This document shows, one piece after another, positions 685 to 63,688 of a stretch of DNA of 64,000 nucleotides. The first letter of the stretch is position 1; every line of letters starts with the position of its first letter. The position numbers were made by a program, and so were the translations under genes. The notes under the pieces are model-generated. The model ran no database searches. It was not told the DNA's origin and was given only the letters and a program-made list of their open reading frames with translations. The stretch is from a virus (taxonomy: Duplodnaviria; Caudoviricetes), in IMG/VR virus record IMGVR_UViG_3300032330_001252, positions 1 through 64,000 of that record; one strand, written 5' to 3'.

Positions 685-777
685 TCCAGACCTCCAGGTG
701 TTGCTAGTGGATATTAATCGAACACTAGCACCGCGCTCCTGGAAGTTTCGCCCAACTTGCATGGGCTCATCAGTGGA
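685..777 (-). ncRNA. Type I hammerhead ribozyme
   Basis: Minus strand reads UCCA-CUGAUGA-GCCCA(UGCAAGU)UGGGC-GAAA-CUUCCAGG...CCUGGAGG-UC/UGGA. All core nucleotides and stems I, II and III are present, with a GUC cleavage triplet and predicted cut between 689 and 688. Confidence 0.85.
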
Positions 778-860
778 ATAGGGAGGCGACCGCTAGAGAC
801 TTCCTCGGTCATTAAGATGCTATCCCTTAGGCGGGACTCATATCACCAATTTATATAATA

Positions 861-1088: not shown

Positions 1089-1397
1089 TCAACCACGCAG
1101 GTGTTGCAACAACACTTCCAAGACTTCGTGATTGGCTTTTTCCAAGCTGTCAAAGGTTTCAGGAGCAACGCCAATGCGGTTGGCAATTGCATCCACCAGC
1201 TCGGCTTTCTTAACACGAGCCACAGTGGTTTTGCTCTTGGCTTGGTACACGCCCTCACGGCTCAATTTTGCCACGATGCTTCGAGTAGATTTGCCCAGCT
1301 GGGTGGCCAGTGCTTCTACAGTTGCGCCCGCTTGGTAGCCGGCAACGAGAGCTGCGGTTTGCTCGGGGGTGTAGTTGGTTTTCGTAGCTTCAGTCAT
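1089..1397 (-). CDS. A2: T5 A2-like DNA-binding protein, paralog
   Basis: NYTPEQT..V..YQ.G..VE.LA..LGKS.RSIVAKLSREGVY resembles the A2 SVRSKL...AY motif; AAGGA RBS precedes the ATG at 1397. Confidence 0.7.
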   Translation of the reverse strand: MTEATKTNYTPEQTAALVAGYQAGATVEALATQLGKSTRSIVAKLSREGVYQAKSKTTVARVKKAELVDAIANRIGVAPETFDSLEKANHEVLEVLLQHLRG

Positions 1398-1438
1398 CAT
1401 ATGTCCTTTCAATTGGTTTCTGCGCTGTTTAAAGAATA

Positions 1439-1467
1439 ATTATACTGTTAAAATGGAACATCGTCAA
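1439..1467 (-). promoter_or_regulatory. sigma70 promoter for the A2-like gene
   Basis: TTGACG-17bp-TATAAT. Confidence 0.75.
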
Positions 1468-1582
1468 ATTCAAAAATTTCGCGGTGTGCGTTGGTATCTG
1501 CCAAAATTTCTGATACTTCTGCGTCCACAAATTCCGTGTACCAGGCTTCCTGGTCCATGCGGAAAAAATCATTGTCTGTCAT
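1448..1582 (-). CDS. 44-aa acidic peptide ending EFDDVPF (not in the ORF track)
   Basis: MTDNDFFRMDQEAWYTEFVDAEVSEILADTNAHREIFEFDDVPF*; GAAGGA RBS and its own promoter at 1610-1638. Confidence 0.75.
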   Translation of the reverse strand: MTDNDFFRMDQEAWYTEFVDAEVSEILADTNAHREIFEFDDVPF

Positions 1583-1609
1583 GTGCCATTCCTTCTAATC
1601 AATAAATAA

Positions 1610-1638
1610 ATTATACAGAATTCAAAAAACTTTTTCAA
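1610..1638 (-). promoter_or_regulatory. sigma70 promoter
   Basis: TTGAAA-17bp-TATAAT. Confidence 0.7.
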
Positions 1639-6449: not shown

Positions 6450-6773
6450 TCAGGCTTTTTCAGCCTTGATAAATTCTGCAATCTTAGCGAGTGCAGTCTT
6501 ATTCGCTTTGGTCAGCGAATCAGCATCAGCCTCAGTCAAGCCCAATGCTTGAGCGATGAAGTCTGCGAATTCATCCTTCTTCACAACAGCTTCACCAGTC
6601 TTAGTGGTGTAAGTCTTAGCTACATAAACTTTCTCACGCGAAAGTTTAGCAACAACAGAGCGAACAGATTTACCCAAAGCCTCAGCGATGGATTCAACAG
6701 TTCTGCCAGCTTGGTAGTCGGCAACCATGCGAGCAGTTTGCTCGGCAGTATAGTTTACAGTTTTTGCAGTCAT
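6450..6773 (-). CDS. A2: T5 A2-like DNA-binding protein, paralog
   Basis: Closely similar by eye to 2134..2460; AGGAG RBS. Confidence 0.7.
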   Translation of the reverse strand: MTAKTVNYTAEQTARMVADYQAGRTVESIAEALGKSVRSVVAKLSREKVYVAKTYTTKTGEAVVKKDEFADFIAQALGLTEADADSLTKANKTALAKIAEFIKAEKA

Positions 6774-63040: not shown

Positions 63041-63688
63041 TTAACCTAAGTCTTTAACGGCTTCACGCTCTGCTTCAGAGGTACCGTCTTCGCTTTCATC
63101 ATCACTGTTTGTGGTGATTTTTGTTAATAGAGCCAACACTTCATCTTCTGTTGGGCGAGTGTATTTTTCATCAATTGATTTAGATGCGTTAACTAATTCA
63201 CGTTCTGCATCTGAAAGTGCACGAGTTTTGCAACGCAACACTTGCAACTGGTACTCAACATTATAAGCCAATGGGCCTGTCTTTACTCGTTTGAAAACAA
63301 TATCCCAACCTGTATCGAAATCTGTAGGATCACCTAAGTCTTCGGCTGCTGTCAAAATTTGTTCAAAGAGTTTTTTCTTTAAGTTAAGGGCTTTAACCTT
63401 ACCATCTTTAGGGTCAATACAATTAACTGTGTATGACCAGCTGCATTTTAGATCTGGAAAAAAGTCAGGCACATGATCTTTTTGTAGATTGTCAAACTTT
63501 TCTTTGTCGCGGCTAAATGCCAAGCACTCTACTGGAATGTCCTTGTTGTTAGAACCTTTCAACCAGTAAATATAGCGGGGAAGAACTCCACCAACTAAAC
63601 GTACTACATTCTCACCATCTTTGTATTCATAAGACTCGACTTTGTTTGATTGTGCTTTGCCTTTTGTGTTCTTGAAGCTAATTGCCAT
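63041..63688 (-). CDS. D11: T5 D11-like ssDNA-binding protein
   Basis: G.N.VRLVGGVLPRY.YW; DP.D.DTGWDI.F.R.KTGP...VEY; acidic tail. Confidence 0.8.
   Translation of the reverse strand: MAISFKNTKGKAQSNKVESYEYKDGENVVRLVGGVLPRYIYWLKGSNNKDIPVECLAFSRDKEKFDNLQKDHVPDFFPDLKCSWSYTVNCIDPKDGKVKALNLKKKLFEQILTAAEDLGDPTDFDTGWDIVFKRVKTGPLAYNVEYQLQVLRCKTRALSDAERELVNASKSIDEKYTRPTEDEVLALLTKITTNSDDESEDGTSEAEREAVKDLG

Follow-up and report, generated by a model that had tools for sequence, protein, structure and literature searches.

A conserved 44-residue acidic micro-protein with an SSB-like C-terminal tip in the pre-early region of a T5-type siphovirus, a possible stand-alone mimic of the SSB C-terminus

The stretch of DNA analysed here, referred to as the window, comprises the first 64 kb of an 82.4-kb IMG/VR record that is estimated to be 78% complete, and it belongs to a siphovirus with a T5-type layout, whose large terminase is about 50% identical to the terminases of T5-like Vibrio phages. 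A near-identical contig of 100.9 kb carries Pfam calls for the T5 small terminase, the T5 nicking endonuclease, the T5 dNMPase and, weakly, T5 A2, and the replication module is composed of a T5 D5-like regulator, a D11-type SSB, a polymerase, a primase, a DnaB-like helicase and a split NAD ligase. In a leftward cluster near the genome end, among T5-type dNMPase and A2-like genes, is found the coding sequence of a 44-aa acidic micro-protein (1448..1582, minus strand), which starts with ATG, is closed by a TAA stop at 1448-1450 and ends in EFDDVPF. This peptide has 13 acidic and 2 basic residues, with a computed pI of about 4 and a net charge of about −11, in agreement with an earlier note on this DNA that had pointed to an acidic 44-aa product with this very ending. 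The ribosome-binding site described in that note was also recovered, since AAGGAA (1589..1594, minus strand), as read from the sequence, is located 6 nt 5′ of the peptide ATG and a purine-rich equivalent precedes the ATG in 23 of 23 related loci. The note had additionally credited the gene with its own consensus promoter; a promoter is indeed predicted, of the sigma-70 type TTGAAA-17-TATAAT (1610..1638, minus strand), but with 11 of 12 consensus matches it is near-consensus and not perfect. Similarly, the gene had been called unannotated, which is true in the sense that it is unnamed, yet it is already called 'hypothetical protein' in public metagenome gene sets.

In the IMG/VR relatives, the ORF keeps its ATG start and its 44 codons at 23 of 23 loci, and each of the 23 also presents a TTGnnn −35 box and a TATAAT −10 box (TACAAT in L025) in front of the gene. 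Across the 23 distinct sequences, the peptide frame is the only one that is open in all of them, the other five being interrupted by stops in most, and the variation is concentrated in third codon positions, with a pN/pS of 0.49. The peptide ORF is a real, conserved gene. That the stretch could instead be a non-translated leader was ruled out by the conserved ATG and RBS, the fixed length and the single open frame.

Downstream of the peptide gene lies an A2-like gene for an HTH DNA-binding protein of 103 aa, counted from an ATGATG start (1089..1400, minus strand), the assignment of which is based on a weak match of its orthologs to Pfam Phage_T5_A2 together with HTH and D5-like matches. The A2-like gene starts 39-54 nt past the peptide stop at every locus long enough to show it, and the pairing of the two genes holds even in the most divergent members, while neighbouring genes change order. 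The A2-like gene has a predicted promoter of its own, TTGACG-17-TATAAT (1439..1467, minus strand), whose −35 box and upstream A/T tract lie inside peptide codons 35-41. The last 10 peptide codons share DNA with the conserved promoter of the next gene, an overlap that the earlier note had missed. The boxes of this embedded promoter are near-invariant across the 23 loci (TACAAT in one), and the A/T-rich upstream tract is also kept. Past the embedded promoter and ahead of the A2-like start codon, nearly all related loci keep a leader motif of 16 nt, AACAGCGCAGAAACCA (1414..1429, minus strand), which is not repeated exactly elsewhere in the window, has no predicted RNA structure and might serve as an operator or as a site of translational control. 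The A2-like HTH gene at 1089-1400 is one of several paralogs within 7 kb, the others being placed at 2134-2460 and at about 6450-6773 on the same minus strand and at 1-192 on the plus strand, and related loci carry an extra convergent A2-like copy downstream of the peptide/A2-like pair.

The earlier note had placed the peptide among the pre-early genes, and such a T5-type pre-early location fits the synteny with Phage_T5_dNMPase and, weakly, Phage_T5_A2, as well as the predicted sigma-70 promoters. Expression of the peptide would therefore be expected at the pre-early stage, at which the T5 genes are reported to change host functions ahead of the entry of the remaining DNA. The likeness to the T5 pre-early region (dmp, A1, A2, T5.005-T5.017) consists of a leftward cluster near the genome end in which a dNMPase gene and an A2-type DNA-binding gene are found behind strong sigma-70 promoters. 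However, T5 has neither a homolog nor an analog of the peptide: the ORF upstream of T5 A2 (T5.007) encodes an unrelated protein of 83 aa, and the T5 ORFs T5.007-T5.009 upstream of A2 are all unrelated to the peptide. Moreover, the clade of phages carrying the peptide possesses several A2-like paralogs, whereas T5 has a single A2 gene, and no ORF of the size of A1 (556 aa in T5) was seen in the pre-early region of the peptide phage.

AlphaFold2, with an alignment of 28 sequences, predicted a single amphipathic, aromatic-rich alpha-helix spanning residues 3-30 (1493..1576, minus strand), with mean pLDDT values of 92 for residues 1-10, 97 for residues 11-20 and 88 for residues 21-30. The acidic tail formed by residues 31-44 reached a pLDDT of about 60, and in the model the tip is carried on this flexible acidic segment. 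Within the helix, F6 is invariant and E17, F18 and E22 are found in at least 90% of the sequences, and an aromatic face made up of F6, F7, W/Y14, Y/F15 and F18 is conserved. The net charge of the family ranges from −7 to −13 over the 44 residues. An OB fold or any other ssDNA-binding domain is absent from the peptide, as the earlier note had proposed, considering that neither Pfam nor PHROGs gave a domain match, that a single helix is predicted and that the net charge is negative. The peptide is not an SSB, and its net charge of about −11 implies that it cannot bind ssDNA.

A profile search assigned about 280 clusters at 90% identity to the peptide family, all of them metagenomic. The family is abundant in metagenomes, and the few JGI sample numbers seen are presumably those of freshwater lakes. 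The exact length of 44 aa was kept in 109 of the 144 family clusters examined. A word-indexed search retrieved 11 close homologs, and an exhaustive HMMER search over 1.84 billion representatives retrieved 25 clusters at 50% identity, with lengths of 40-101 aa. Forms fused to other domains were considered and discarded, since this exhaustive search returned only products of 40-101 aa and the longer ones are upstream-extended ORF calls; two 'cluster members' of 664 aa and 770 aa were likewise discarded for having no real similarity to the peptide. The peptide matched nothing in Pfam or PHROGs and nothing among 50,697 GenBank phages (tblastn, E up to 10), blastn of the peptide region gave a single 50-nt match at chance level, and a feature search of the ESM Atlas gave nothing usable. 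Against PDB sequences, the peptide profile produced chance-level matches only (Piwi PAZ, E 0.04), among which there was no SSB.

The most conserved region of this fast-evolving family is its C-terminal tip, which reads E-F-D-D-V-P-F-COOH in the window (1451..1471, minus strand) and is conserved at the family level. The earlier note had proposed conservation of the terminal Pro-Phe as a check on its idea of SSB mimicry, and the family comparison bore this conservation out: 128 of the 144 clusters examined end in D-[V/I]-P-[F/Y/L/W] with the stop codon immediately after. Among these 128, position −4 is always Asp and position −2 always Pro, position −3 is Val in 121 and Ile in 7, and the terminal position is Phe in 109, Tyr in 12, Leu in 5 and Trp in 2. 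Position −5 is Asp or Glu in 124 of the 128, and position −6 is Phe, not Asp. The stop codon comes directly after the last tip residue in the window and in 23 of 23 IMG/VR loci. A non-aromatic end or a lost stop was seen in about 10% of the clusters, and the non-canonical ends include Gln or His in 6 clusters (about 4% of the 144). The stop has been replaced by Gln or Trp in about 8 clusters (about 6%), P0049, P0065, P0066, P0086, P0134, P0011 and P0032 among them, and in these members a 13-aa extension is encoded by the −10 box and the leader of the next gene. Such an extension would bury the tip, and inactive alleles or errors of sequencing are possible explanations for the stop-loss members.

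The C-terminal tip of bacterial SSB, D-D-D-I-P-F-COOH, is known to recruit partner enzymes, and for the free SSB-Ct peptide a Kd of 136 nM has been given for the complex with ExoI (PMC8341153, PMC5872125). Six of the last seven residues of the phage peptide fit the SSB-Ct pattern, at the extreme C-terminus. Pro, Phe and a free carboxylate on a flexible segment are shared with the E. coli tip (...DFDDDIPF-COOH). The acidic run and the aliphatic residue ahead of them correspond in part, the phage tip having two Asp where that of E. coli has three, and Val in place of the Ile or Leu usual in SSBs. Tips of the sequence FDDDVPF were found on phage ssDNA-binding-type proteins in IMG/VR, for which reason Val at position −3 can be regarded as a natural variant of the tip. 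The OB fold, the tetramer core and the long Gly/Pro/Gln linker of bacterial SSB are all lacking in the peptide, in which the tip is carried by a 44-aa single-helix protein. It should also be considered that the likeness is confined to a linear motif of 6-7 residues, which is too short to gain statistical support from profile searches, and the searches of Pfam, PHROGs and PDB sequences returned no SSB.

Since the tip is encoded partly within the promoter of the A2-like gene, conservation at the DNA level had to be separated from conservation at the protein level. Codons 35-41 are nearly frozen at synonymous sites because the promoter overlaps them, with GAA, TTT, GAC and GAT present in 20-21 of 21 sequences, and the conservation of E-F-D-D is consequently in part a DNA-level effect. 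By contrast with these codons, Pro43 is encoded by CCA, CCC, CCT and CCG and Phe44 by TTT and TTC, and TAA, TAG and TGA all occur as the stop, the position of which never moves. Divergent members that end in F-L-D-V-P-F or A-L-D-V-P-F have their −35 box (TTGATG) at a distance from the C-terminus that differs by 3 nt, and D-V-P-F-stop is nevertheless kept. The synonymous variation at Pro43 and Phe44, the use of three stops and the 3-nt shift of the −35 box together show that the last tip residues are under protein-level selection despite the overlapping promoter, and they rule out that the tip is a mere by-product of that promoter. The conservation of the tip is, in addition, unbiased by the way in which the members were collected, because the last residues lay outside the search patterns.

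The phage encodes its own SSB, a T5 D11-type ssDNA-binding protein (phrog_1607; 63041-63688, minus strand), the acidic tail of which ends in KDLG. Homologs of D11 in E. coli T5-like phages (Tequintavirus) and in Vibrio phages end in DLDD, and the D11-type tail is a separate, phage-specific tail code. Neither this contig nor a 100% complete relative of 99.7 kb contains a member of the Pfam SSB family (PF00436). Given that the D11-type SSB has another tail, the host-type tip is not needed for phage replication, and the idea that the tip is required by the phage's own SSB was rejected on the same ground; the host-type tip sits on a separate pre-early micro-protein and not on the phage SSB.

Mobile elements have been described to copy the host SSB tip in order to engage host DNA-processing factors (bioRxiv 10.64898/2026.04.29.721553, 10.64898/2026.10.27.754916, PMC13687109). 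Bas52_0087 and Bas48_0087 (FDDDIPF or DDIPF) and prophage DUF669 proteins (DDDIPF) are, like the peptide, copies of the host tip. However, these proteins possess OB-fold or DUF669 ssDNA-binding domains and act on ssDNA, whereas the peptide has no such domain and is encoded in the pre-early region instead of the replication module. Other small tip-bearing proteins were observed in passing. The 99.7-kb relative (G001) encodes an 88-aa protein with a weak ExoX-like_C match that ends in ...ESKDVPF (L030:1501-1767, minus strand), which is found neither in this genome nor in two other relatives and which adds a second phage protein bearing this tip. Further IMG/VR sequences (L056:2983-3201, minus strand; also L093, L118, L114 and L055) encode proteins of 73-111 aa that end in FDDD[I/L]PF and have no Pfam match. 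SSB tips thus seem to be attached to domains beyond the recognised SSB folds in other phages too.

Taken together, the pattern and conservation of the tip, the protein-level selection acting on it and an architecture of helix plus tail without an OB core suggest that the peptide could be a stand-alone mimic of the SSB tip that fills SSB-tip pockets on host genome-maintenance proteins. This is the reading that we favour, tentatively and with somewhat less than even confidence. It is also consistent with a context of host takeover, in which a strong promoter and RBS, T5-type dNMPase and A2-like neighbours and a position near the genome end are combined, with a phage that possesses its own polymerase, primase, DnaB-like helicase, ligase and D11-type SSB, and with the finding that small-molecule SSB-Ct mimics affect several SSB partners and inhibit bacterial growth (PMC8341153). 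According to this mechanism, the peptide would be made from its strong sigma-70 promoter once the first DNA is in the cell, and the side chain of its terminal Phe and its alpha-carboxylate would enter the hydrophobic pocket and basic lip of SSB-interacting proteins, with the preceding Asp/Glu residues touching the basic ridge beside the pocket. The candidate targets are exonuclease I, RecQ, RecJ, PriA, RecO, the chi subunit, Ung and RNase HI; we infer both the pocket binding and the identity of these targets. Having no ssDNA-binding domain, the peptide would fill the pockets unproductively, and host repair, recombination and nucleases would be uncoupled from SSB-coated DNA during delivery of the nicked T5-type genome. 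In this way, the incoming nicked genome might be protected and host repair disabled in the first minutes of infection, and the phage replisome would be spared, as its D11-type SSB has a different tail.

Some considerations speak against a mimic of this kind. To compete with the host SSB tails, a monovalent peptide would need to be comparably concentrated. The conserved face of the helix is very hydrophobic, which implies a second partner or self-association, neither of which is needed by a simple decoy. Furthermore, the tip lacks the third Asp of E. coli SSB and shows Val at a position that is mostly Ile or Leu in SSBs, the conservation of E-F-D-D is partly promoter-driven, and the usual end is replaced by Gln or His in about 4% of the clusters and read through, owing to a lost stop, in about 6%.

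Synthetic SSB-Ct peptides and small-molecule mimetics occupy the SSB-Ct pockets on ExoI, PriA and DnaG (PMC8341153, PMC5872125), which is the same principle as that of the proposed decoy. These mimetics are, however, man-made, whereas the peptide would be natural and genetically encoded, with a helix added. Small acidic inhibitors that are expressed early by phages and act by mimicry include Ugi, phi29 p56 (both acting against Ung), T7 Ocr and T7 gp5.9. The peptide resembles them in being small, very acidic and among the first products expected, and in the proposed neutralisation of host proteins of DNA metabolism or defence, but in Ugi, p56, Ocr and gp5.9 a folded domain mimics the shape and charge of DNA, whereas the peptide would mimic a short linear protein motif.

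The main alternative, raised by the invariant pairing with the A2-like gene and not considered in the earlier note, is that the peptide is an adaptor, whose aromatic face binds a phage protein (most likely the A2-like protein, less so the D11-type SSB) and whose tip recruits one host SSB-interacting enzyme to phage DNA, be it a helicase, a translocase, a nuclease or a primase, for example for completion of DNA entry or for processing of host DNA. In favour of such an adaptor, the conserved aromatic residues F6, F7, W/Y14, Y/F15 and F18 must be buried somewhere. The peptide and A2-like genes are adjacent, 39-54 nt apart, at every locus long enough, including the most divergent ones, when other genes of the region change order, and the peptide mRNA necessarily runs on into the A2-like gene. 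It is also in line with the occurrence of phage SSB tips on varied non-canonical domains, such as the DUF669 proteins (PMC13687109), and on small proteins without a Pfam match, such as the one of 73 aa, or with the 88-aa ExoX-like_C protein of the relative, which ends in KDVPF. However, the adjacency may be due to no more than the presence of a promoter within the 3′ part of the peptide gene, the A2-like gene has its own promoter and is consequently also made without the peptide, and other A2-like paralogs have no such peptide alongside. We hold the adaptor to be rather unlikely, although docking of the tip in an SSB-type pocket in any role, decoy and adaptor taken together, appears probable, if not strongly so. 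In a more elaborate version, the peptide would be one half, the tail, of a split 'SSB for double-stranded DNA' without an OB fold, in which the helix oligomerises and/or clamps the A2-like protein; the hub so formed would present host-type tips on phage DNA and engage a motor or nuclease of the host that depends on SSB (e.g. PriA, RecQ, RecG or ExoI) for second-step genome transfer or for destruction of host DNA, in a T5-like clade whose pre-early region showed no gene as large as A1. This arrangement we regard as improbable.

The likeness to SSB may, alternatively, be coincidental, with D-V-P-F-COOH docking on RNA polymerase, on the DNA-entry machinery or on a protease, or acting as a C-terminal degron that limits the lifetime of a pre-early regulator. 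The shortness of the motif, which leaves it without statistical support from profile searches, and the members ending in Gln or His are compatible with this view, as is the presence on the phage of a tmRNA and a ClpP-like protease gene, owing to which C-terminal signals could matter; an early T5 protein, gpT5.026, is reported to bind host RNA polymerase (PMC7472727). Nevertheless, the invariant Asp at −4 and Pro at −2, the aliphatic residue at −3, the terminal aromatic residue and the strictly free carboxylate are precisely the residues and groups known to matter in SSB-Ct, and a generic hydrophobic degron would not require Asp and Pro; a coincidence is judged unlikely. Still less can be said for the peptide being an inhibitor of host SSB itself, in which the acidic chain would bind the ssDNA surface of the OB fold as an ssDNA mimic and weaken host SSB, the phage using its D11-type SSB instead. 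A net charge of −7 to −13 over 44 residues and the separate SSB encoded by the phage would suit such a role, and the C-peptide of SSB is reported to bind its own OB domain intramolecularly (PMC3936761). Yet strict conservation of Pro-Phe-COOH fits the pockets of partner proteins better than it fits an electrostatic mimic of DNA. In addition, the cis contact of the SSB tip with the OB fold is weak, and direct inhibition of host SSB is seen as very improbable. The earlier note had also suggested a bait for SSB-sensing defences, and this suggestion has lost ground: for both DRT4 and DRT10 the trigger supplied by the phage is an SSB-like protein with an OB fold, and that of DRT4 acts by binding ssDNA made by the system (bioRxiv 10.64898/2026.04.29.721553, 10.64898/2026.10.27.754916), whereas the peptide cannot bind ssDNA. 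Because host ExoI restrains DRT10, blocking the docking of ExoI might nevertheless provoke DRT10-type systems.

The SSB C-terminal tip is a hub that links more than 12 bacterial enzymes of replication, repair and recombination to ssDNA, and it is a pursued antibiotic target. Copying of this tip by phage and plasmid ssDNA-binding proteins is already known, but the literature searched contained no description of such a tip standing alone on a 44-aa helix that lacks a DNA-binding domain. Should the mimicry favoured here be true, the peptide would be, within that literature, the first known natural inhibitor or hijacker of the SSB interactome and a case of short-linear-motif mimicry from a bacterial virus. 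It would also provide a compact in vivo probe of the contacts between SSB and its partners, and the pre-early programme of T5-like phages, which is poorly understood, would gain a new function in host takeover.

Other elements were observed in the same region and elsewhere in the genome. Eight TTGACA-18-TATAAT promoters, perfect or nearly so, occur between 306 and 6056 on the plus strand, which is not the strand of the leftward genes, with hexamers starting at 306, 1687, 1962, 2639, 3380, 4568, 5244 and 6000. They share a repeat of about 42 nt, in which the spacer and the −10 box form an inverted repeat that is followed by GGCGC, and most of them aim into the 3′ ends of leftward genes; antisense control and titration of RNA polymerase are possibilities for these repeats. 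At 740-805 (minus strand), in an ORF-free stretch between promoter-like sites, Rfam Hammerhead_3 gave a full-model match of 31.9 bits (E 8e-4), which is below the gathering score of 48.5. Beyond the window, at 77301-81712 of the genome (L159), 14 tRNA genes are found together with a circularly permuted two-piece tmRNA, which adjoins the ClpP-like protease gene and encodes the tag ANDSVYALAA. The permuted tmRNA with this tag suggests that the host is a proteobacterium and, presumably, one of the Betaproteobacteria, to which we take a two-piece tmRNA with a tag of the ANDSVYALAA type to point.
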